A DNA stretch of 64,000 nt from IMG/VR virus record IMGVR_UViG_3300030376_006203, positions 32,001 through 96,000 of that record; one strand, 5' to 3'. This document shows, piece after piece, positions 9,058-63,727 of the stretch. The position numbers were made by a program, and so were the translations under genes. This stretch comes from a virus. Its lineage: Duplodnaviria; Caudoviricetes. Numbering within the stretch: position 1 is the first letter of the stretch; the number at the start of each line of letters is the position of its first letter. The notes below the pieces were generated by a model that worked only from the letters and a program-made list of their open reading frames with translations, was not told the origin of the DNA and did not search any database.

Positions 9058-11307
9058 TTAGGCTTGTTTCTCAAGCAATTTAACACCGTCGCCTATGTCT
9101 AGTGCTAGTTTTTTATCTTTTACTGTGACCTTAACTACACCACCGTTTTTAAGCGATCCAAACAGTAGTTCTTTTGAAAGATCCTTTTTAATTTTGTTAT
9201 CAATCAATCTCTGCATAGGTCTAGCACCCATTTTGTCATCATAGCCATGCTCAACCAAATAGTCGATTGCTTCATCTGTAAGTTCTAAAGCAACATCTTT
9301 TTCTTTTAATTGTGTTTTTAAATCTAGCATAAATTTGCCCACAATTTTAATTAATACTTCTTTAGCAAGTTTTTTGAATACAACTGTGCCATCTAATCTA
9401 TTTCTAAATTCAGGAGCAAAGAAACGTTTCATATCTTTATCATCATATTCTACATCTTTAACTGCGTTGAAACCCATTACGTTTTTGTCTGCTTGATCGG
9501 CACCTAAATTAGTTGTTAGTATCAAACATATATTTTTAGCACTGGCTGTTTTACCATTGTTTCCTTGTATAGAACCTTCATCCATTATTTGTAATAATAT
9601 TTGTGAAACATCAGGGTGTGCTTTTTCTACTTCGTCTAATAGCAACACACAGTTTGGATATTCTTGTAATTTTGTAACTAACAGTCCTGTGTTTTCTTCA
9701 AACCCTACATAACCTGGAGGTGAGCCTATTAGTTTAGCCACTGCGTGTTTCTCTTGATATTCTGACATATCAAATCTTACAAGTTTAACACCTAATTGTT
9801 CTGCCAACTGTTTTGCTGTTTCAGTTTTACCACATCCTGTTGGACCCATAAACACAAATGAACCTATAGGTTTATTATCACGTTTCAAGCCTGCTTGAGC
9901 AACTAACACTTTATCAACAACCATATCTATTGCTTCATCTTGTCCGTAAACATTTGCTTTCATGTTTTTAGATAGATTTGCTAGGTTACTAGATTCTTTT
10001 TCAGCAATTGATTCTACAGGCATTTTAACCAATTTAGATAATTCATATTGAATAGATTCATCATTTACTGTTCTATCTGATTGCTTTTCTTTTAGATTAA
10101 ATCTAGAACAAGCCAAGTCTATCAAGTCAATTGCTTTATCAGGCAATTTTTTATCTGTTTGATATTTTATACTTAATTTTACTGCGGCTGTGATAGCATC
10201 ATCAGTAATTGTCGCATTATGAAAGTCTTCGTAATACTTTTTAAGTCCTTGTAAAATTTCTAGTGTTGTTTCTTTGTTTGGTTCATCTACAGTAATTCTA
10301 GCAAAACGTCTCATTAATGCTCTGTCTTTTTCAAAATACTTTCTGTATTCTTCCCAAGTTGTAGAAGCAACAACTTTAAGTTCACCTTTAGTCAACACAG
10401 GTTTCAATAAGTTTGCTAAATCATTGGCAGTGTTTCCACCACCGCCTGCACCTGCTCCTGATATATTGTGTGCTTCATCTATAAAGCAAATTGCTTTGCC
10501 TTTTTTCTTCAAACCATTAAGAACCATTTTGAATCTTTCTTCAAAATCACCTCTGTATTTAGAACCAGCCAACATTGCTCCAATATCTAAATTGTAAACT
10601 TCATATCCTTTTAAAAATTCAGGACAAGTTTCATTTACTATATTGAATGCTAAACCTTCTGCTATTGCTGTTTTACCTACGCCAGGATCACCAACAAGTA
10701 TCACATTGTTTTTCATTCTTCTTCCAATAGTAAGTGCTATTTGATTTAGTTCATCTATTCTGCCAATTACAGGATCTATTTTTTTCTTTTTAACTTCAGC
10801 ATTCAAATTAGATGTATATTTGTTTAATGCTCTTTTAGTTTCAGTTTGATCAACTTCATCTTCAAATATTTCTTCTATTTCACTATGTAGGTAGTCCATA
10901 AATTTTTCTTTATCAACTTTTGCTTGTACAAGGAAATAATATGCCCAACTTTTTGTTTCACTCATTAAACTTAAAAATACATCTGTTAAGTCTATATTTG
11001 TTCTACCACTGAATAAAACTTGCGTGAATGCTCTGTTTAGCACTCTTTCAACACTAATAGTTTTTTTAGGCTTGTATTTGGCAACTGATAATTTAATGCC
11101 ATCTAGTTTATGATCAAGATATGTAATCAGATGTGTTTTTAAATTATCCACATCAGTGCCGTAACCTTTTAATATATTACAGAATTTTTCATCTTCGCAC
11201 ATAGAAAACAGCATATGTTCAAGAGTAACATATTCGTGCTTGTATGACTTGGATAAATTTACTGCTCTATCAAATACACTTTGTAAAGCACCACTAGGTT
11301 CAACCAT
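9058..11307 (-). CDS. clpA: ATP-dependent Clp protease ATPase subunit ClpA
   Basis: Clp N-domain (HEYVTLEH), two Walker A motifs GDPGVGKT and GPTGCGKT, RFDMSEY, GSPPGYVG, MGF ClpP-docking loop, no ClpB middle domain. Confidence 0.93.
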   Translation of the reverse strand: MVEPSGALQSVFDRAVNLSKSYKHEYVTLEHMLFSMCEDEKFCNILKGYGTDVDNLKTHLITYLDHKLDGIKLSVAKYKPKKTISVERVLNRAFTQVLFSGRTNIDLTDVFLSLMSETKSWAYYFLVQAKVDKEKFMDYLHSEIEEIFEDEVDQTETKRALNKYTSNLNAEVKKKKIDPVIGRIDELNQIALTIGRRMKNNVILVGDPGVGKTAIAEGLAFNIVNETCPEFLKGYEVYNLDIGAMLAGSKYRGDFEERFKMVLNGLKKKGKAICFIDEAHNISGAGAGGGGNTANDLANLLKPVLTKGELKVVASTTWEEYRKYFEKDRALMRRFARITVDEPNKETTLEILQGLKKYYEDFHNATITDDAITAAVKLSIKYQTDKKLPDKAIDLIDLACSRFNLKEKQSDRTVNDESIQYELSKLVKMPVESIAEKESSNLANLSKNMKANVYGQDEAIDMVVDKVLVAQAGLKRDNKPIGSFVFMGPTGCGKTETAKQLAEQLGVKLVRFDMSEYQEKHAVAKLIGSPPGYVGFEENTGLLVTKLQEYPNCVLLLDEVEKAHPDVSQILLQIMDEGSIQGNNGKTASAKNICLILTTNLGADQADKNVMGFNAVKDVEYDDKDMKRFFAPEFRNRLDGTVVFKKLAKEVLIKIVGKFMLDLKTQLKEKDVALELTDEAIDYLVEHGYDDKMGARPMQRLIDNKIKKDLSKELLFGSLKNGGVVKVTVKDKKLALDIGDGVKLLEKQA

Positions 11308-54408: not shown

Positions 54409-54870
54409 TTAATCTGCTCGACTTTCACTGATTACATTTAAACCATATTGTTCTTCTAATACCTTAGCAAAGGCATCACAAGCCGTTTCTTTGATGTCCA
54501 AAGATTGACAGTGTCTCCACTTATGGTTCTCTGGCATAATATCGTAGTAGGATACTCTCCAACCACCTCTATAACCATTGCTACCAATACCTTGTTTCTT
54601 TAACCAACCAACAAATTTACCTTGTGCTGGTCTGATTGTGATGTTAGCAAATCCACAATACATAGGTTCTTCTTTACCTTCCATATATGTGTCAACGGCA
54701 TCAACAGCCGCCTCTTTGGCTATACCCCACATCTTCATTGGTTCTACTTTTGCGTTTACAAATTTAACTACTTGTTTTACATCTTCTTTTATCATGTTGT
54801 TTTTCCTTTTGTTAAGTTTATTAAAGTGTTGATACATTTTGTTCAATTGTTTTTCTATTAATTCGCTCAT
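54409..54870 (-). CDS. early hypothetical protein (alternative start 54795)
   Basis: YCGFA..QSLDIKE..SRAD C-terminus. Confidence 0.65.
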   Translation of the reverse strand: MSELIEKQLNKMYQHFNKLNKRKNNMIKEDVKQVVKFVNAKVEPMKMWGIAKEAAVDAVDTYMEGKEEPMYCGFANITIRPAQGKFVGWLKKQGIGSNGYRGGWRVSYYDIMPENHKWRHCQSLDIKETACDAFAKVLEEQYGLNVISESRAD

Positions 54871-55247
54871 TAAACTAACAATCTTTTTTGACCGTCCATA
54901 TAACAAGCACCAGTCCATTTTACAACGTACTCACCAAAAATGTTACCTCTTGGAGCATTCAAAGCCGGTAATGCCCAACTTGCCGCTTTTAAGATATCAC
55001 CCTTTTTGAACTCTACACCTTTAGAAGTTGTGAAGTCTTTACTTGCTATGAATGAATGTACTGAATTACTAGTACCAATCTTTGTCATAACCTTAATGTA
55101 TTTCTTGCCCGGTTTTACTGTGATACTTTCACAGAACTCTTTAACCATGTTATCTCTAACAGTTCTTTCTGTTTCTGTTTTTGGATTATTCCAACCAACA
55201 TAGTCTTTTTTAATGTTTTCAATGTAATTGTCTATTTGTGTTTTCAT
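54870..55247 (-). CDS. early hypothetical protein
   Basis: GKKYIKV..SVHSF..GDILKAASW..PRGNI motif common in large phages. Confidence 0.7.
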   Translation of the reverse strand: MKTQIDNYIENIKKDYVGWNNPKTETERTVRDNMVKEFCESITVKPGKKYIKVMTKIGTSNSVHSFIASKDFTTSKGVEFKKGDILKAASWALPALNAPRGNIFGEYVVKWTGACYMDGQKRLLV

Positions 55248-55349: not shown

Positions 55350-55607
55350 TTAATCGTCGAATGCTTTTGCTTGGGGATTTTTGCTGAATTTACGCCAAAT
55401 CTTGTGTAAAGCATAGAACCAAACACCATTAATACTTGGTTCAATTAGTGCTACTGCGCCTGCTTCAAACAGACTGGCTCCAGTCATTACACTGACAACA
55501 CACATCGCAATAACGATATGTCCTAAGGTATAAATGATAGCCAGTGCTAAACTGCTAGTGCCTAGCAATTTTAATATATTAAAGATTCCTTGTTTAAATT
55601 CGCTCAT
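55350..55607 (-). CDS. DUF2061-like membrane protein
   Basis: YTLGHIVIA..EP..NGVWFY.LHKIW; leaderless after TTGACT-18-TATAAT. Confidence 0.65.
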   Translation of the reverse strand: MSEFKQGIFNILKLLGTSSLALAIIYTLGHIVIAMCVVSVMTGASLFEAGAVALIEPSINGVWFYALHKIWRKFSKNPQAKAFDD

Positions 55608-55705: not shown

Positions 55706-55969
55706 TTATAATTGTACACCTTTTGCTAATGCTTTGTATCCAAGACCTACTACCATTCTAGGTGCTTTACCTGTTCTGTATACTTTAACACCAGTTCTTT
55801 TGTTAGTGTTTAAGAACACAGGTAAACCTTTGAATCTTAATGCTTGAATTACTGCACCTGGGTTACCAGCACCAAATCTATTTTTAATAGCATTTGATGT
55901 TAATGCTTCACCGTTTAATAAAGCATTTTCTACTCTTTTTTGTATAGTCATAGTTTTAGTTTTAGCCAT
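55706..55969 (-). CDS. winged-helix DNA-binding protein (possible longer form from 56053)
   Basis: LLNGEALT..IKNRFG..NP..VIQALRFKG; AGAGGAG SD. Confidence 0.6.
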   Translation of the reverse strand: MAKTKTMTIQKRVENALLNGEALTSNAIKNRFGAGNPGAVIQALRFKGLPVFLNTNKRTGVKVYRTGKAPRMVVGLGYKALAKGVQL

Positions 55970-56108
55970 TGAGCTAACTCCTCTTCTGATTTTTGTCTTC
56001 TTCTGGACAGTATTCGTACCAGTCGAAAACATATTTTTTATTATGTCTAACATTAATATTAATATACATTCTTTTAAGGAAATAGTCAATAAGGTAGGTT
56101 TACCAAAA

Positions 56109-56702
56109 TTAGCCAAAAATACTCATGTCACAATCTAACACTGTGGCAACCAAGTGTACTCTGTCTTCTTCACCACCGTTGAAAGCATTATGGTACTTGG
56201 TATTGTCGGTAATCCATACACCACCATCTGCAGGCATATGATGAACTTCAGTATCGATACACATACGAGCACCAAAATTTGTAACAATTGGTATGTGGAG
56301 TCTAGGTTCTGGATCTCTATGCCAACTCAAAGTTGTTCTTGGCAGTTTCCAAAGCAACCTAATCCTACCAAGTTTATACTTTTTGGTAAGTGCTTCGTAC
56401 ATCTCTTTGAAATATGTGTCTTTGAATAGCGAAACAAATTCTGAATATTGTGCTTCGTCTATCACTTCTTCTCTTTGAACTTCTTGATAAGTGCTGTCTG
56501 GTTTAGTCCAGTACAGTCCTCTTACATTACCACCTGTGATTGAATTTGGATCATTTGGTATTTGTGTAAGGCAGATAGCATTTATATCTCTTTCACCTAA
56601 CGGCGACTGTCTTGCTACTCTTGAATCAACTTCTGCTAATGCTGACTGCATTTTGGCAACATCGAATTTTAATGTTGGATCTCTGTAAAATCCTTTTGGC
56701 AT
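56109..56702 (-). CDS. Asp/Asn beta-hydroxylase-like 2OG-Fe(II) dioxygenase
   Basis: RIRLL..LSWHRD..RLHIPIVTN..HNAFNGG..RVHLV. Confidence 0.8.
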   Translation of the reverse strand: MPKGFYRDPTLKFDVAKMQSALAEVDSRVARQSPLGERDINAICLTQIPNDPNSITGGNVRGLYWTKPDSTYQEVQREEVIDEAQYSEFVSLFKDTYFKEMYEALTKKYKLGRIRLLWKLPRTTLSWHRDPEPRLHIPIVTNFGARMCIDTEVHHMPADGGVWITDNTKYHNAFNGGEEDRVHLVATVLDCDMSIFG

Positions 56703-56703
56703 A

Positions 56704-58080
56704 TTAATCTCCGAATTTGATACCTTGTGCTAAAGGTAATGATTTTCCATAATTAATTGTGACTGTGCTTCTACGCATATATTGTTTCCAAGCATCAGAA
56801 CCAGACTCACGTCCGCCACCTGTGTCTTTCTCACCACCAAATGCTCCACCAATTTCTGCTCCACTAGGACCAATATTAATATTAACAATACCACAATCTG
56901 AACCAACTGCTGATGTAAATGTTTCTGCTTCTTGAACGTTGTCAGTAAAAATACACGAACTTAATCCTTGTGGCACTGCGTTATGAATATCAATTGCTTC
57001 ATCTAAATCTTGATATTTCATAGTGTAAAGTATTGGAGCAAATGTTTCAGTCTTAACCAAATCACATTGTTCTGTTGCTTCTACTATTGCAGGACGAACT
57101 GTACAACCTTCTACAACTTCACCACCATGAACTGTGTAACCTTTTGCTTTAGCCTGCTCTAATACCGAAAGCATTCTATCTGCTGACTCTTGGTTGATTA
57201 GCGGTCCTACCAAAGTTTCTTCTTTAAAGTTATCTCCCACTGGTAAACTTGAATAAGCAGACTTTAATTTTTCTAACAACACATCATATACAGATGTATG
57301 TACAATTAATCTTCTCAATGTGGTACATCTTTGTCCTGCTGTACCAACCGCACCAAACACAATACCTCTTACTGCTAAATCAATATTGGCGTGTTTGGAT
57401 ACAATCATACCATTGTTTCCACCTAGTTCATATAAACCTTTACCCATTCTTGCCGAAACTCTTGGAGCCAATGCTTTACCCATTGCTGTCGAACCTGTAG
57501 CACTTAACAAATTGATTCGTGAATCATCTGCCATCCATTCTGCTTCAGTTTTATCTCCGTCAACTACCTGTAATAAATCTTTAAATTTTGTATCAGGAAA
57601 GAAGCATTCGCTGATTGCTTTGTCCCATGCCTCTTTACAACTGTCTGTTACATTTTTTGCTTTGGGTGAACCTTTCCATACCACACTGTTTCCACATACC
57701 ATCGCTATACAATGATTCCATGCCCAAACGGCACAAGGAAAATTAAAGGCAGTAATTACACCTACAACACCTAATGGATTGTAAACTTCCTGTAATTTGT
57801 GTTCTGGTCTTTCACTCTGTATTGTTAATCCGTATAATTGTCTTGAAAGTCCTACTGCGAAATCACACATATCAATTGCTTCTTGTACTTCACCAATTGC
57901 TTCTGCGTGTATCTTTTTTGCGTCTTTCATAATGGCTGTACCAATCTTTTCAATGTCTTGTCTTAAATGATTGCCAAACACTCTGATAACTTCACCTCTT
58001 TTAGGTGCTGGTACAGTTCGCCATTCTTTTTGAATTGATTTTGCTCTTTCTATTATGCTGTCGTAATTATTTTTATTCAT
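56704..58080 (-). CDS. ALDH7-type aldehyde dehydrogenase (alpha-aminoadipate semialdehyde / P6C dehydrogenase)
   Basis: TAFNFP.AV, ATGST, ELGGNN, GTAGQRCT, GAEIGGAFGGEK.TGGGRESGSDAWKQYMRR; start refined to 58080. Confidence 0.9.
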   Translation of the reverse strand: MNKNNYDSIIERAKSIQKEWRTVPAPKRGEVIRVFGNHLRQDIEKIGTAIMKDAKKIHAEAIGEVQEAIDMCDFAVGLSRQLYGLTIQSERPEHKLQEVYNPLGVVGVITAFNFPCAVWAWNHCIAMVCGNSVVWKGSPKAKNVTDSCKEAWDKAISECFFPDTKFKDLLQVVDGDKTEAEWMADDSRINLLSATGSTAMGKALAPRVSARMGKGLYELGGNNGMIVSKHANIDLAVRGIVFGAVGTAGQRCTTLRRLIVHTSVYDVLLEKLKSAYSSLPVGDNFKEETLVGPLINQESADRMLSVLEQAKAKGYTVHGGEVVEGCTVRPAIVEATEQCDLVKTETFAPILYTMKYQDLDEAIDIHNAVPQGLSSCIFTDNVQEAETFTSAVGSDCGIVNINIGPSGAEIGGAFGGEKDTGGGRESGSDAWKQYMRRSTVTINYGKSLPLAQGIKFGD

Positions 58081-59098
58081 ATAGTTTCCCAAATTTATTG
58101 CTTGTAAATATTTCCAATGGAACATCTTCTTGTTTTTGAAATCCACTGCCAGATAATTTGCCTTCTGTGTAGGCTTGTACAACCGCACATACACCAGAAG
58201 CCGTTGTTCTTTGAATAGCATTCAAAGTTTTATCTCCGTATATTTTCTTTTGAAAAGTTCTTTCTTGTAATTTGCCATCTATCACGCCAATCACAGTAAT
58301 AAACATAACCACAACGTCTTTGGTTGTGTATGGGACTTCCTGATCAAACAAATCAATAAATTTTAATTTGTTGTGTTTTAGATTAAGGTCTTCTAATAAA
58401 AACTTCATATTAGAATGATGTCCAGGATATCTAATAGTCTTATAACTCATTGTCTTAACTTTGTCAGCAAATGTTTCACACATTGAAGCAACTCCGCCTG
58501 AAGTGTTGAATGCTTCATATTTGTTTCCATCTATGAATAAATGTTCCAATCCATCCAATGGTTGAACTTTAATCGCTTTGCCGTTTGAAATAACATCTAC
58601 ATCATTAATATATTCATTGATTAGACCTGAAGTTGACCATGTCAAATAATATGCCATACTGTTGGCTGTGTACATAGGCAACGCACCTACTCTCATTTTC
58701 ACTTTGTCTACTCTACTGAATTGTTTTATAAGATCCGATGCTATAATATTAACTGCTCCAGGAGCCAATCCACATTGTGGCATCATGAATGCTTCTGTTT
58801 TTAATCCTTTGATATGATCCGACACTGCGACATCTTCTGTAAGGTCAAAGTATGCTACATCATTTTCGGCACAGGCATCTGCTATTGATATATTAGCATC
58901 ATAAGAAGCACAACTAACAACTATGTCTTTGTCTTTAATAAACTCAGACAATGCGTGGTCATCATTGGCATCTATATGAATTGCATTTTGAATTTCGGTA
59001 TTTGAATCAACTAAAAAAACTTCATGCTTTTCTAATTTTAAGAAAGCACTTACTATACGTCCGATTTTTCCTGCTCCTACTACAACAATTTTTTTCAT
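58073..59098 (-). CDS. lysine 6-dehydrogenase / saccharopine dehydrogenase family
   Basis: GAGKIG, YFDLTED, CGLAPG, VGALP, TWS..GLINEY, EAFNTSGG, YKTIRYPGH. Confidence 0.88.
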   Translation of the reverse strand: MKKIVVVGAGKIGRIVSAFLKLEKHEVFLVDSNTEIQNAIHIDANDDHALSEFIKDKDIVVSCASYDANISIADACAENDVAYFDLTEDVAVSDHIKGLKTEAFMMPQCGLAPGAVNIIASDLIKQFSRVDKVKMRVGALPMYTANSMAYYLTWSTSGLINEYINDVDVISNGKAIKVQPLDGLEHLFIDGNKYEAFNTSGGVASMCETFADKVKTMSYKTIRYPGHHSNMKFLLEDLNLKHNKLKFIDLFDQEVPYTTKDVVVMFITVIGVIDGKLQERTFQKKIYGDKTLNAIQRTTASGVCAVVQAYTEGKLSGSGFQKQEDVPLEIFTSNKFGKLYE

Positions 59099-59101
59099 AA
59101 T

Positions 59102-59344
59102 TTATCTTCCTGTTTTACTTACAAATTTCTGTGGACCTTCAGTTATAAATTCGAGTCCGCTCATATTACCAATATAAACATTTTTTTCAATATTGTATTG
59201 TAATTGTAATTTAACTGTTTTTTGAAACACCACACTTAAGAACTGATTCTCTTTGAACGTGAGGATATTTGCTTCTACCTTTTGTCCATTTCTAGTGCAT
59301 TCAATAATACAATTATCATCGAAATGTATCGTTTCCATCGTCAT
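59102..59344 (-). CDS. hypothetical protein
   Basis: YIGNMSGLEF; start refined. Confidence 0.6.
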   Translation of the reverse strand: MTMETIHFDDNCIIECTRNGQKVEANILTFKENQFLSVVFQKTVKLQLQYNIEKNVYIGNMSGLEFITEGPQKFVSKTGR

Positions 59345-59546
59345 CCTTATTTTTATTTTTAAGTTGTTGAACTCTTTTGTAACTGATATAATAAATGAAA
59401 TCAACCCAAAGGACATTCATAAAATATCCTAGTAATGTCAGTCTCAATCCAAATAGGAAAGGTAACAAAAATATTGCCACCCACATAAAAAACAAATAGT
59501 GACTTATTCTTTCACCTGGCACTGACCAATACAGCCATTCATTCAT
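59316..59546 (-). CDS. membrane protein
   Basis: Two hydrophobic segments. Confidence 0.55.
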   Translation of the reverse strand: MNEWLYWSVPGERISHYLFFMWVAIFLLPFLFGLRLTLLGYFMNVLWVDFIYYISYKRVQQLKNKNKDDDGNDTFR

Positions 59547-59547
59547 A

Positions 59548-59745
59548 TTATAAAAAATTTCTTTTTAATTTCTGTGCTTTTTTAATATTAACTAATCTTT
59601 GTTTCGCTTTTTCTCTTTTTACTTCGCTTGGCTTTTGATAGTATTGTCTATCTTTTAACTCTTGAAAAACACCATCTCTTTTCATTTTCTTCTTCATTAC
59701 CCTTAATGCTTTTTCAACATTATTATTTCTAACTTCTATCTTCAA
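59548..59745 (-). CDS. rpsU: 30S ribosomal protein bS21
   Basis: VRNNNVEKALRVMKKK..ELKDRQYYQKPSE; GGAGG SD, TTG start. Confidence 0.92.
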   Translation of the reverse strand: MKIEVRNNNVEKALRVMKKKMKRDGVFQELKDRQYYQKPSEVKREKAKQRLVNIKKAQKLKRNFL

Positions 59746-60052: not shown

Positions 60053-60616
60053 TTATAAAATATGATCCGCTACTTTTAAATCCACTAATTGTTTTGCTGT
60101 GTAATATTGATCCGAAGGATTTTTTATAAATTTGGCATTAACTTCCTGCACACTCATTCCTGTTGCTTCACGTAGTATCTGCATACATCTTTGTTCACAG
60201 TTTCCATTTTCTTTCATCTGTGCTTTCATATCATGCATTTTGGAATCCATTGTGTCGGAGTGTTGATGATTCATTATGCCTGTGTTCTTACCAATGTAAC
60301 GTTCGCCTTGTTTACCACTGGCAAATATTAAGAAGCCTGCACTCATCACAGCACCAATGCCTATTGTAGAAACATTATGATGACTATTTTTCATCACATC
60401 AATTAATGCGAAAGATTCATACAAGTCTCCACCAACTGTGTTGATATACAAAACCAACTTACGTTTAGGTTTTTTCTGTAGATTGGCAGACAGTATCCAT
60501 TTGATTGCTTTGGCAATATTCTCTTCGTTTAACTCGCCGTTGAGATAATGAATGTCATTGTCAAAAAGACTGTTATCTGCTCTATCCTCTGCACTGTGAT
60601 TTTCGTATCTTTTCAT
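60053..60616 (-). CDS. clpP: ClpP protease proteolytic subunit
   Basis: LYINTVGG, MSAG (Ser), MNHQ (His), SDQY (Asp). Confidence 0.88.
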   Translation of the reverse strand: MKRYENHSAEDRADNSLFDNDIHYLNGELNEENIAKAIKWILSANLQKKPKRKLVLYINTVGGDLYESFALIDVMKNSHHNVSTIGIGAVMSAGFLIFASGKQGERYIGKNTGIMNHQHSDTMDSKMHDMKAQMKENGNCEQRCMQILREATGMSVQEVNAKFIKNPSDQYYTAKQLVDLKVADHIL

Positions 60617-61347: not shown

Positions 61348-62046
61348 CTATTTTTTGATTTTGGGAAATAAGGCGTCTGTACAGAAAAGTTCAACGTCTT
61401 CTTCTTTAAGTCCTAATGACTTCATTACCCTTGGAGTATGCGGATTTTGTTGTTGATTATGGCAATAGTAATTCTGTGCTTGAATGGTTTCTTCTTCATT
61501 TGCTGTGTTTTTGTAATCACCAATGGAATCAAAATAAACTTTTAAATTGGCTAATGCCATTTCCACAATGGCTTTGGATTCTTCTTCACTGCTGACATTT
61601 CCTGCCGCAACCATTGAACCACTGAATATGTTTAATGCCCATTGCGGTAATTCTCTTTTCTTACTAGGTACAAATTCTTCTACTGCTTCTTTAAACCAAT
61701 CTATCAAAGGATGTTCTTCGCCACCAGAACTTTTTGAAAAGTCATGAAAGGCTCCTGTCATTTTGTTTTTACCTGCTATAACATCAAATCCATATATAGG
61801 ACCGTTGTTATCCAAATTAGGAAAAATACACACGTGCATCATCCATAAACCTTTAGACTCTCTAGCATCTACCACATCTATATGGCAACGTCTACAATCT
61901 TCTGTTTGCCATACTCTATTAATCCAACCGTTATCAGGTTGATTAAATTGTGCCATGCCTTCTTCTTGAATTTCTTTACCTCTAGAATCAAATTCTTTTA
62001 TGATTTGTTCTTTACAGTCTATTAGTGTGTCCCAAATGATGCTCAT
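61348..62046 (-). CDS. pcyX: ferredoxin-dependent bilin reductase, PcyX/PcyA type
   Basis: RRCHIDVVD, WMMHVCIFP, PIYGFDVIAG, AFHDFS, RELPQWA..IFS, YCHNQQQNPHT; heme oxygenase upstream. Confidence 0.85.
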   Translation of the reverse strand: MSIIWDTLIDCKEQIIKEFDSRGKEIQEEGMAQFNQPDNGWINRVWQTEDCRRCHIDVVDARESKGLWMMHVCIFPNLDNNGPIYGFDVIAGKNKMTGAFHDFSKSSGGEEHPLIDWFKEAVEEFVPSKKRELPQWALNIFSGSMVAAGNVSSEEESKAIVEMALANLKVYFDSIGDYKNTANEEETIQAQNYYCHNQQQNPHTPRVMKSLGLKEEDVELFCTDALFPKIKK

Positions 62047-62258
62047 ATTAAATTTGAATCCGTGTGGTATATGAAAGGATCGTCTGTTTCTATACCTTTC
62101 AATGCTTTCACTCTTGTTTCTAAAGCATCTATTGTTGTATAGATGTGTCCTGTATCTGTTTCTTGAATTAAACTTTTAAAATATTTGATTTCGTCTTCTA
62201 GAACTTTTATTTTTATAAGATTACCAGGAAAGTCTTTGAATTTCTTTTTCCTAGGCAT
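62043..62258 (-). CDS. small hypothetical protein
   Basis: MPRKKK..DTGHIYTTI; start refined. Confidence 0.55.
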   Translation of the reverse strand: MPRKKKFKDFPGNLIKIKVLEDEIKYFKSLIQETDTGHIYTTIDALETRVKALKGIETDDPFIYHTDSNLI

Positions 62259-62787
62259 TGTGTAAATCTTTAAACAAGTCAGCGGCAAATTTGAAACACA
62301 GTCTGGCTTCATCTGCCATGCTGTCATCTGTTTTACTTCTGATTCTTTCTTTTACTTCTTTGATGTCTGCTCTACCAAACTCATACATTGTTCCGCTACC
62401 AGGTGCTCTTTTCTTAATCATTTGTCCACCTGATAAATCTCCCATGTGTCTAACATATATGTGAGCCATTAACTTTTTAGGATCATCTTTAATTGTTGCC
62501 ATGTGTTTAAGATATTCTTCTGTGCTAGGAGCAAGTTCTGGCATATCTTCTTTTTTCCATAATTCTTGAAAGTCTGCTAATATGGCAGGTGCTCTTCTAA
62601 TTTGCGGGAAGTCATTTAACAAACCATGTGACATCGCACAGGCTTCTAACAAATTGTATATTGCGTGTTGATTGTATAAAAATTCAGCATAAAGTTCCTC
62701 AGACATTTTGCCACTCATTAAAACTCTTACAAAGCCTTGTCTTTCTGCGTCTTGGTGTACTTCTTTTGTTAACTCTTTTAGTCCCAT
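62251..62787 (-). CDS. hemO: heme oxygenase
   Basis: LKELTKEVHQDAE, AHIYVRHMGDLSGGQ. Confidence 0.92.
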   Translation of the reverse strand: MGLKELTKEVHQDAERQGFVRVLMSGKMSEELYAEFLYNQHAIYNLLEACAMSHGLLNDFPQIRRAPAILADFQELWKKEDMPELAPSTEEYLKHMATIKDDPKKLMAHIYVRHMGDLSGGQMIKKRAPGSGTMYEFGRADIKEVKERIRSKTDDSMADEARLCFKFAADLFKDLHNA

Positions 62788-62930
62788 TAAAATCCTTCCG
62801 CAAACATTACCTTGGCATTTGGAAATCTTGCTTCAACTATTTGTTTGGCTTCTGAGGCAGTCCTGCCTTCTTCAGCAACTTTCATTGGTGCTTTGTTTTC
62901 CAGTGTTACCCAAAAGTAGTATTTGTTCAT
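62787..62930 (-). CDS. small hypothetical protein
   Basis: Manual 47-aa ORF MNKYYFWV..EAKQIVEARFP, coupled on both sides. Confidence 0.55.
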   Translation of the reverse strand: MNKYYFWVTLENKAPMKVAEEGRTASEAKQIVEARFPNAKVMFAEGF

Positions 62931-63232
62931 TCTTGTTCTATTTTTACTTGTAAAGGGAAACCTCTGTCTCTACTTTCGTTAGTGGCTTCTGTTCCTTTTT
63001 GTTCTGCTAATTCATATGTATATGTTCCGCAGACTGCTGAACCTTCTTTATGAATCTTTAGTGTTAGGTCTTTTGCTGTTTCTGGTTTGTGTTTGAATAT
63101 CTTTACCAATAACTCAATCACAAAATCCATTGGTGTGACTTCGTCATTCAATAAGATTACATGGTAATTCTTTGGAGTCTTTAATATTTGTTTTACTTTC
63201 GAGTCTACCTTTACTTCTAAATCTGTTGTCAT
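62927..63232 (-). CDS. clpS: ClpS N-degron adaptor
   Basis: YHVILLNDEVTPMDFV..IHKEGSAVCG.Y..E.AE.K..FPL. Confidence 0.92.
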   Translation of the reverse strand: MTTDLEVKVDSKVKQILKTPKNYHVILLNDEVTPMDFVIELLVKIFKHKPETAKDLTLKIHKEGSAVCGTYTYELAEQKGTEATNESRDRGFPLQVKIEQE

Positions 63233-63283: not shown

Positions 63284-63727
63284 TTACTTAACTTCAATAG
63301 TTCTTGCTTTTTTACCTTCTGGAATTATACGTTCCATAGATATTTTCAATAAACCATCTTTAAGTTCTGCTCCCTTTACTTCTACATCATCAGCAATAGT
63401 AAATGATTTTGAAAACCATCTCTTGCTAATGCCTCTGTGAAGCATACCGTCCACGTCATTATCTTTGGCTTTTTCCTTAGATTTGACAGTCAACATATTG
63501 TCTTTGTATTCTACATCTATGTCGTCTTTTGAAAAACCTGCAAGTGCAAGTTCCACGTCATAAGTGTATTCACCAGTCTTCACTATGTTGTATGGTGGGA
63601 AGTTTGTAGCAACCATAGTATTGAAATTGTGATCATCAATCATTCTTTCAAAATGATCGAACACATTGTCGAATCCTACTGTTACTGGTCTTAATCGATT
63701 GAATATAGATAGTGCTTTATTTGTCAT
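63284..63727 (-). CDS. small heat-shock protein Hsp20 (IbpA-like)
   Basis: FPPYNI, ELALAGF, HRGIS.R.F, A.LKDGLL. Confidence 0.95.
   Translation of the reverse strand: MTNKALSIFNRLRPVTVGFDNVFDHFERMIDDHNFNTMVATNFPPYNIVKTGEYTYDVELALAGFSKDDIDVEYKDNMLTVKSKEKAKDNDVDGMLHRGISKRWFSKSFTIADDVEVKGAELKDGLLKISMERIIPEGKKARTIEVK

Follow-up and report, generated by a model that had tools for sequence, protein, structure and literature searches.

A candidate lysine-oxidising gene pair beside a widespread hydroxylase gene in a large T4-like marine phage

A known bacterial route converts lysine to 2-aminoadipate by means of an L-lysine 6-dehydrogenase (LysDH) and a piperideine-6-carboxylate (P6C) dehydrogenase. 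In Ruegeria pomeroyi, SPO0234 (lysdh) and SPO0235 (aasadh) have been re-annotated from experimental data (Neshich et al. 2013, as summarised in PMC4334477), and PMC4334477 describes the lysdh-aasadh route as preferred under high salt and as yielding 2-aminoadipate. We present here what its sequence suggests is a viral copy of that route, encoded at positions 56109-59098 of a 64,000-nucleotide stretch of DNA (the window) from the IMG/VR record IMGVR_UViG_3300030376_006203, which measures 148 kb and is 41% complete according to the CheckV estimate. The cassette consists of three co-oriented open reading frames (ORFs):

58073-59098, minus strand: L-lysine 6-dehydrogenase-like enzyme, 341 amino acids (PF03435 and PF16653)
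56704-58080, minus strand: ALDH7-type 2-aminoadipate semialdehyde/P6C dehydrogenase, short form, 458 amino acids (PF00171, NF050084)
56109-56702, minus strand: Cpz10-type 2-oxoglutarate/Fe(II) hydroxylase, 197 amino acids (PF05118)

The original prediction described these genes as a LysDH/saccharopine dehydrogenase type, an antiquitin-type aldehyde dehydrogenase (ALDH) and an Asp/Asn-hydroxylase-like enzyme; we confirm the ORFs and the domains. It described an operon of lysine catabolism coupled to the dioxygenase. We favour, with somewhat better than even confidence, a different arrangement in which a two-gene lysine-oxidising auxiliary module lies beside an independent phage hydroxylase. Host-type metabolic genes of marine phages mostly concern photosynthesis, nucleotides, phosphate and sulfur. 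The pair had been put forward as a pathway not yet described in phages, and our literature search agrees in that it found no paper naming the pair as a phage pathway and none combining saccharopine dehydrogenase with auxiliary metabolic genes (AMGs). The pair is not mentioned in the pelagimyophage survey PMC7029224 or its supplements, and PMC10732071, which surveys large marine phages, goes no further than counting more AMGs under the KEGG class 'lysine degradation'.

The first gene product (P0002) is a compact protein joining an N-terminal Rossmann NAD(P)-binding domain, with the GxGxxG-type motif VVGAGKIG at residues 5-12, to a saccharopine-dehydrogenase C-terminal domain. Its best phmmer match in the PDB is 3abi, the LysDH of P. 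horikoshii (E 2.4e-22), followed by saccharopine dehydrogenase 2axq (E 2e-4) and no others. The assignment of 3ABI (PH1688) as L-lysine 6-dehydrogenase is that of Yoneda et al. 2010, cited in PMC10413350, which confirms it. The AlphaFold2 (AF2) model of the phage protein has a pLDDT of 82, falling below 50 at residues 143-160 and 233-257, and matches 3abi with a Z score of 38.8 and a root mean square deviation (rmsd) of 2.1 Å over 328 residues (VIA). The sister families, all of them longer proteins, score lower: 34.3 for carboxyspermidine dehydrogenase, 30.5 for saccharopine reductase and 26.9 for homospermidine synthase. By sequence and by modelled structure, the phage enzyme is nearer to the characterised LysDH than to these sister families. 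The string YKTIRYPGH is invariant in the alignment of the LysDH family, and T-x-R-x-PGH of the phage protein aligns with 3ABI. Carboxyspermidine dehydrogenase has a His-Glu-Glu triad in its active site, H228-E229-E230 in the B. fragilis enzyme (PMC10413350). No such tripeptide occurs anywhere in the 341 residues of the phage protein, where by inspection the likely equivalent position reads PGHHS.

The second gene product matches PF00171 (E 5e-112) and, far above the next family at 245 bits, NF050084, L-piperidine-6-carboxylate dehydrogenase (691.1 bits, E 8e-208). Its PDB matches, aligned end to end with E values of 1e-128 to 1e-162, are 6dbb, Pcd 6rtr, seabream antiquitin 2jg7 and human ALDH7A1. 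In the alignments with 2jg7, 6rtr and 6dbb the motifs FNFP, ELGGNN, GEVQE and QRCTT are identical, as is the ALDH7-specific C-terminal motif GAEIGGAFGGEK..GGGRESGSD. The phage protein thereby keeps what we take, by the naming used for antiquitin, to be the catalytic Cys, the general-base Glu, the oxyanion Asn and the substrate-anchoring Glu, together with the Arg by the Cys. It is 53-56% identical to the ALDH partners of bacterial LysDH.

The start of this gene needed correction. The ORF as called spans 56704-58221, encodes 505 amino acids and overlaps the LysDH gene by 149 nt, while homology to every ALDH7 starts at residue 48. Within the overlap, comparison with five related contigs gives synonymous to non-synonymous counts of 11:3, 19:6, 17:5, 15:5 and 14:11 in the LysDH frame, and of 1:13, 0:24, 5:18, 5:17 and 4:20 in the frame of the ALDH extension. 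Since the changes are mostly silent in the LysDH frame and mostly alter the protein in the extension frame, we place the ALDH start at Met48 (ATG 58080), giving 458 amino acids, and reject the 505-residue form; the 149-nt overlap is an artefact of ORF calling. A few tblastn alignments reach into the extension (L009, L013 and L015), and these look like chance extensions in AT-rich sequence.

If the two enzymes act as their families suggest, their substrates, direction, products and role would be as follows. LysDH would take the epsilon-amino group off free L-lysine as ammonium in an NAD(P)-dependent reaction, producing 2-aminoadipate 6-semialdehyde, which would cyclise to P6C. The ALDH7-type dehydrogenase would then oxidise the semialdehyde/P6C to L-2-aminoadipate, so that each lysine would yield two NAD(P)H and one NH4+. 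The product would be 2-aminoadipate unless host enzymes act further. Within the 148-kb record we found no P5C-reductase dimer domain, no HglS and no later step of the pathway, a result that says nothing of the whole genome; the only class I/II aminotransferase-family match in the record is 5-aminolevulinate synthase. The likely use in the infected cell would be the conversion of lysine to reductant and ammonium, or to 2-aminoadipate; the original prediction had suggested a supply of reductant or nitrogen, or osmoprotection, possibly fed by Clp proteolysis.

The two-step chemistry that had been proposed gains support from 3ABI as nearest relative, from the ALDH7 identity, from the Ruegeria pair annotated on experimental evidence (PMC4334477), and from gene pairing in bacteria. 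We retrieved 80 bacterial loci with the LysDH family; in about 55 of them LysDH has an ALDH7 gene as its neighbour, at 46-62% identity to the phage ALDH, which is downstream in most and upstream in SAR86. This pairing across bacteria is explained by the shared intermediate. LysDH homologues with 32-46% identity are also found in 62 of 401 genomes drawn from the class of the Rhizobium genome.

The pair also occurs in viruses. Many IMG/VR contigs of diverse sampling origin have the cassette between these same phage genes, some at 83-95% protein identity and others in a more diverged form. LysDH homologues at 66-82% identity lie on two contigs of 311 and 234 kb. One 16-kb DNA contig of a public run, which may be the source of this DNA, covers the whole stretch, and the GC content is even along the window. 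Because the same flanks occur in independent contigs, a DNA contig spans the region and the GC content is even, chimera and contamination are very unlikely. The check suggested with the original prediction, for the cassette and its viral flanks in viral databases, has a positive outcome, and the cassette is not an assembly chimera. The locus has what defines a viral AMG, namely genes of cellular type with viral genes on both sides that are kept among related viruses. Against related contigs the ratio of non-synonymous to synonymous substitution rates (dN/dS) is 0.03-0.08 for all three genes (0.03-0.07 for LysDH and 0.05-0.08 for the hydroxylase), and the cassette is under strong purifying selection.

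In two metatranscriptome runs of a single study, near-identical contigs span the ALDH gene and bridge both gene junctions, and the viral pair is probably expressed. The depths of these contigs cannot rank the genes. Four further RNA runs (X17-X20) were set aside as expression evidence; they gave small sequence-word shares only, and X17 contains diverged relatives at 90-95% identity and is uninformative on this phage.

In the LysDH tree, the 16 viral sequences form one clade (support 99) that is sister to SAR86 (99). The ALDH tree, built with FastTree and rooted at the midpoint so that no direction of transfer is inferred from it, unites viral and SAR86 sequences in one clade (100) in which the first branch is a viral group with ALDH next to ClpP, and SAR86 and the hydroxylase-linked viral group are sisters. 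The SAR86 ALDH7 sequences (loci L008-L016) are in this way nested inside the viral ALDH7 diversity, and gene flow between phage and SAR86 in either direction is possible. In the samples searched, no named cellular genome comes nearer than 53% for LysDH or 57% for ALDH. Contigs L094, L095, L097 and L098 (= L119, L120, L127 and L150) carry a LysDH 68% identical to that of the window beside an ALDH at 82-89% and a hydroxylase at 89-92%. This mosaic implies that recombination broke the cassette near where LysDH and ALDH meet, and the 68% LysDH adjoining an 82-89% ALDH indicates that the pair was kept through recombination. The 328-kb relative G003, complete with terminal repeats (DTR) and rated 100% complete, keeps both LysDH and ALDH7 about 250 kb apart; its ALDH7 pairs with ClpP near 286 kb, its hydroxylase lies near 98 kb, and all three genes are dispersed. 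The LysDH homologue of G003 (L154, G003:C1:30873-34883) is 57% identical and overlaps the start of a family-B DNA polymerase gene by 4 nt. In the separate viral clade (L143-L149), ALDH7 directly precedes a full ClpP gene and follows NifU and Fe-S assembly genes, with no adjacent hydroxylase.

The third gene product (P0003) matches PF05118 Asp_Arg_Hydrox (E 2.5e-9) and, in the PDB, the sequence of Cpz10 7v4f (E 1e-16). Its AF2 model (pLDDT 93.5) is a complete jelly-roll that matches Cpz10 with a Z score of 23.8 and an rmsd of 1.6 Å over 166/168 residues (VIA), and the next structural tier, consisting of AspH and the proline 3- and cis-4-hydroxylases, follows ten units below at Z ~13.8. Across 54 diverse homologues, residues H128, D130, H171 and R181 never vary and H136 hardly does. 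Aligned by inspection, H128, D130, H171, R181, H136 and H183 correspond to the H115/D117/H160 triad, R170, H123 and H172 of Cpz10. The phage hydroxylase therefore has the HxD...H facial triad and the 2-oxoglutarate-binding Arg on a double-stranded beta-helix, and it looks active. Cpz10 acts on an aminobutyrate side chain, which it hydroxylates at the beta-carbon, and free methionine is also oxidised by it (PMC9814697). By analogy, our best guess is that the substrate of the phage enzyme is a small-molecule amino acid or the amino-acid part of a small molecule. Pipecolate was considered as a clue to the substrate and dropped; the pipecolate-bound proline cis-4-hydroxylase ties with AspH and proline 3-hydroxylase at Z 13.8. 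The family is large, with at least 8,000 clusters at 90% identity in ocean metagenomes, and a search of the ESM Atlas with the hydroxylase returned PF05118 clusters only.

The claim that this dioxygenase is part of the lysine pathway fares poorly. It is adjacent in none of the 80 bacterial LysDH loci, and a search of the SAR86 and Rhizobium genomes that carry LysDH-ALDH7 did not find it. In the complete genome of pelagimyophage Mosig, which yielded no LysDH and no ALDH7, an orthologue (54% identical) is the neighbour of a phosphate-transporter gene. A 235-kb contig likewise has the hydroxylase and, in its sequenced part, no LysDH or ALDH7. An Asp/Asn beta-hydroxylase has been described as core to all pelagimyophages, with no lysine genes mentioned there (PMC7029224). 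These phages carry one to three PF05118 genes, and HTVC008M has only a weak PF05118 match (17 bits). Elsewhere in phages the neighbours of the hydroxylase vary and include a Toprim-like gene and unassigned genes. Where the lysine genes are missing beside it, one lineage has a glutamine-synthetase-like gene one 71-codon ORF upstream of the hydroxylase (L113:3704-4753), and another has a radical-SAM/SPASM gene at a distance of about 1.2 kb on the upstream side (L100:2399-3751). Over the bacterial loci, Mosig, the ALDH-ClpP clade and G003, the association of hydroxylase and pair does not hold throughout. We read the position of the hydroxylase after ALDH as inherited gene order in one clade and not as a required third step. 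The hydroxylase would then be a widespread gene of this phage group that acts on its own.

Several observations weigh against a lysine-oxidising pair with an independent hydroxylase. The phage LysDH shares only 25-28% of its residues with the single LysDH of solved structure, and 41-46% with the homologues sampled from Alphaproteobacteria. In a model of the Geobacillus LysDH, Y238, T240 and R242 hold the alpha-amino and alpha-carboxyl groups of lysine; the invariant phage Y219-x-T221-x-R223 has the same spacing, a likeness of motif spacing only and not of aligned sequence, in which the counterpart of H181 is not placed. The ALDH falls under the NCBI curated equivalog cut-off (691 versus 730 bits), a shortfall that fits the absence of N-terminal positions 1-15 of the NF050084 model. 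It is also without some 50 N-terminal residues of all solved ALDH7 structures, the alignments beginning at chain residues 56-81; the SAR86 homologues are equally short. The contigs from RNA libraries may include DNA carry-over. One viral contig (L152, IMGVR_UViG_3300020477_001008, 242 kb, 55% complete) has ALDH and hydroxylase and, in its sequenced 242 kb, no LysDH. Finally, the order ALDH then hydroxylase is a trait of one viral ALDH clade (support 98) and persists where ALDH identity has fallen to 57%, and the junction between the two has a 1-nt gap and an RNA-library contig across it, which leaves room for a functional link. L152 is in addition unusually cell-like for a viral contig, with a run of SufS, ribosomal protein L7/L12, SufB, ALDH7, hydroxylase, porin-like, Hsp20 and DnaK genes.

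It is conceivable that the three enzymes form a true pathway in which lysine, P6C, pipecolate or 2-aminoadipate is the substrate of the hydroxylase and a hydroxylated lysine-derived metabolite the product. The constant order and strand of ALDH and hydroxylase in the clade of 57-95% ALDH identity, even where LysDH is not at the locus, and the bridged 1-nt junction speak for this, as do the action of Cpz10 on the beta-carbon of an alpha-amino-acid side chain and on free methionine (PMC9814697) and the free-imino-acid hydroxylases, including the pipecolate-bound one, in the next structural tier. With lysine itself as substrate, the hydroxylase could even work in phages that do not have the pair. 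We nevertheless consider this pathway unlikely, given the bacterial loci in which the hydroxylase is never beside the pair, the Mosig orthologue whose partners were not found, the dispersal of the three genes in the 328-kb relative, the varied neighbours of the hydroxylase elsewhere, the tight packing common to all genes of the run (below) and the tie in the second structural tier with AspH and proline 3-hydroxylase, which does not point to pipecolate. Any functional link between hydroxylase and pair seems improbable to the same extent. That they make up a virus-specific pathway, with a beta-hydroxylated lysine, 2-aminoadipate or P6C/pipecolate ring made only in infected cells, we regard as quite unlikely; if true, the product could be an osmolyte, a signal or a building block, and bacteria would lack the pathway.

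Alternatively the pair may not serve lysine at all, ALDH7 being a general or betaine-aldehyde dehydrogenase and the LysDH-like enzyme acting on another amine, for example a polyamine precursor. ALDH7 enzymes do accept other aldehydes, the phage ALDH lies below the equivalog cut-off, the separate viral clade has ALDH7 next to ClpP with no adjacent LysDH, and carboxyspermidine dehydrogenases are the second-best structural match (Z 34). We find this highly doubtful, as sequence and structure alike give LysDH as the best match, the His-Glu-Glu tripeptide is missing, the strong bacterial pairing of LysDH with ALDH7 is explained by their shared intermediate, and the only complete genome of the ALDH-ClpP type carries LysDH elsewhere. 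An artefact, in which a bacterial fragment was mis-joined to phage DNA or cellular sequence contaminated the viral record, is extremely unlikely. The genes are of bacterial type, and some IMG/VR contigs with relatives of the cassette hold many cell-like genes (SufS, SufB, DnaK, porin, L7/L12); on the other side stand the same phage-gene junctions at both ends in contigs of many samples, the single DNA contig and even composition of the region, the separate clade of the viral copies with its distance from the named cellular genomes in the samples searched, and the relative with terminal repeats rated 100% complete. The reading we retain is thus a lysine-oxidising pair with a neighbouring, independent hydroxylase.

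The surroundings of the cassette include the following genes:

59548-59745, minus strand: phage ribosomal protein bS21, first gene of the tightly packed run (PF01165, E 7e-16)
59102-59416, minus strand: conserved gene of 104 amino acids, 3-nt gap upstream of LysDH
55706-56116, minus strand: conserved gene of 136 amino acids, overlapping the hydroxylase by 8 nt (phrog_4973, function not assigned)
60053-60616, minus strand: ClpP-like protease, context only (PF00574, E 1e-27)
62927-63232, minus strand: ClpS adaptor, context only (PF02617, E 1.5e-29)
9058-11307, minus strand: ClpA/B-like ATPase
63284-63727, minus strand: Hsp20
62251-62787 and 61348-62046, minus strand: heme oxygenase and ferredoxin-dependent bilin reductase, a few genes upstream of the cassette

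The tight coupling of the three cassette genes described in the original prediction stands in part. The gap from ALDH to hydroxylase is 1 nt, and the ALDH start overlaps the LysDH stop by 8 nt in ATGAATAA, where the ATG/stop overlap is a classic coupling arrangement. The 149-nt overlap disappears with the corrected start, and packing is equally tight across the whole run from bS21 to the 136-residue gene, with the 3-nt gap to the 104-residue gene and the 8-nt overlap at the other end, so that it is not special to the three cassette genes. The best promoter-like site by bS21 lies at 59823-59795 (score 10/12) and another follows the 136-residue gene at 55642-55613 (score 11/12). In the window, the promoter and terminator counts are not above chance (38 versus 38.7 and 5 versus 3.8 in shuffles), and for this reason the transcription unit is suggested by gene packing only. 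The 104-residue gene has no match in Pfam, NCBIfam or PHROG and, at 47-93% identity, stands before LysDH in the majority of syntenic viral contigs; the phrog_4973 gene follows the hydroxylase in most of them and is the last gene before a 98-nt gap. In most related contigs the cassette is followed by small conserved genes, in the window at 55350-55607 and 54870-55247 (minus strand), whose domains are DUF2061 (predicted membrane protein) and DUF7717.

The source of the window is a large T4-like marine phage; the pelagimyophages Mosig and HTVC008M are related to it but far smaller. The bS21 of the window matches the S21 of HTVC008M, the flanks also encode a clamp loader, a baseplate-wedge connector, an endonuclease and a ligase, and near the cassette DNA or protein matches to GenBank phages are confined to Mosig, HTVC008M and one 636-kb metagenomic phage. 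Given 148 kb at the estimated completeness, the whole genome probably exceeds 300 kb. The ClpA/B-like ATPase, ClpS, ClpP-like protease and Hsp20 constitute the phage's own protein-degradation set, and the lysine oxidised by the pair may come from host protein degraded by the ClpA/ClpS/ClpP part of it. Among the viral contigs compared, the ClpP-like gene at this position is present only here and in contigs of the L005/L097 type. The same record encodes 5-aminolevulinate synthase (TIGR01821, 544 bits; G000:C1:133484-134521 = L155:1480-2670, minus strand), which together with the heme oxygenase and the bilin reductase suggests a viral line from heme to bilin. Among bacteria this synthase is typical of Alphaproteobacteria, and its presence hints at an alphaproteobacterial host.

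Taken together, these very large ocean phages, an abundant group with a ClpA/ClpS/ClpP set of their own, carry an amino-acid-oxidising pair that is conserved, selected and apparently transcribed. Should the pair act as we propose, infection would convert host lysine to 2-aminoadipate with release of ammonium and NAD(P)H. Phages would then take a direct part in recycling nitrogen where surface water is poor in nutrients. The nearest cellular relatives are in SAR86 and are bracketed by viral ALDHs, which makes one ask whether genes have moved between phage and SAR86. The hydroxylase family is among the most abundant phage enzymes without an assigned role in ocean metagenomes, and the structural model can guide substrate screening.

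Among the known systems, the hydroxylase most resembles Cpz10 (7V4F/7V4M, caprazamycin beta-hydroxylase), with which it shares the same minimal jelly-roll and all the residues named above. Cpz10 differs in its identity of 24-27% and in belonging to a Streptomyces antibiotic cluster, where it acts on a glycyluridine conjugate (PMC9814697); no nucleoside-antibiotic genes were seen around the phage hydroxylase. AspH, whose substrate is Asp/Asn in protein, has TPR and other domains, of which the phage hydroxylase has none. The pelagimyophage protein Mosig_00118 is 54% identical to the window hydroxylase over 94% of its length and also lies in a phage auxiliary-gene region, but with a phosphate-transporter gene as its neighbour and with no LysDH or ALDH7 found in the genome.

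For the pair itself, PH1688 of P. horikoshii (3ABI) has the same fold and size as the phage LysDH, and GxGxxG and T-x-R-x-PGH are common to both; it differs as an enzyme of an archaeal thermophile at 25-28% identity. The pair of the SAR86 cluster (e.g. CP097968.1; L008-L016) is the nearest cellular relative, at 49-53% for LysDH and 51-57% for ALDH, and has the same short ALDH7, but there ALDH comes first, no hydroxylase is nearby, and the long branches to the viral clade indicate neither recent transfer nor its direction. The pair of Ruegeria (Silicibacter) pomeroyi is cellular and not viral, and the phage ALDH differs from it as a short form of 458 amino acids. The Ruegeria route is tied to salt stress and osmolyte formation (PMC4334477). 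The two systems have in common the same two enzyme families in adjacent genes and the same proposed chemistry, from lysine through 2-aminoadipate semialdehyde/P6C to 2-aminoadipate.

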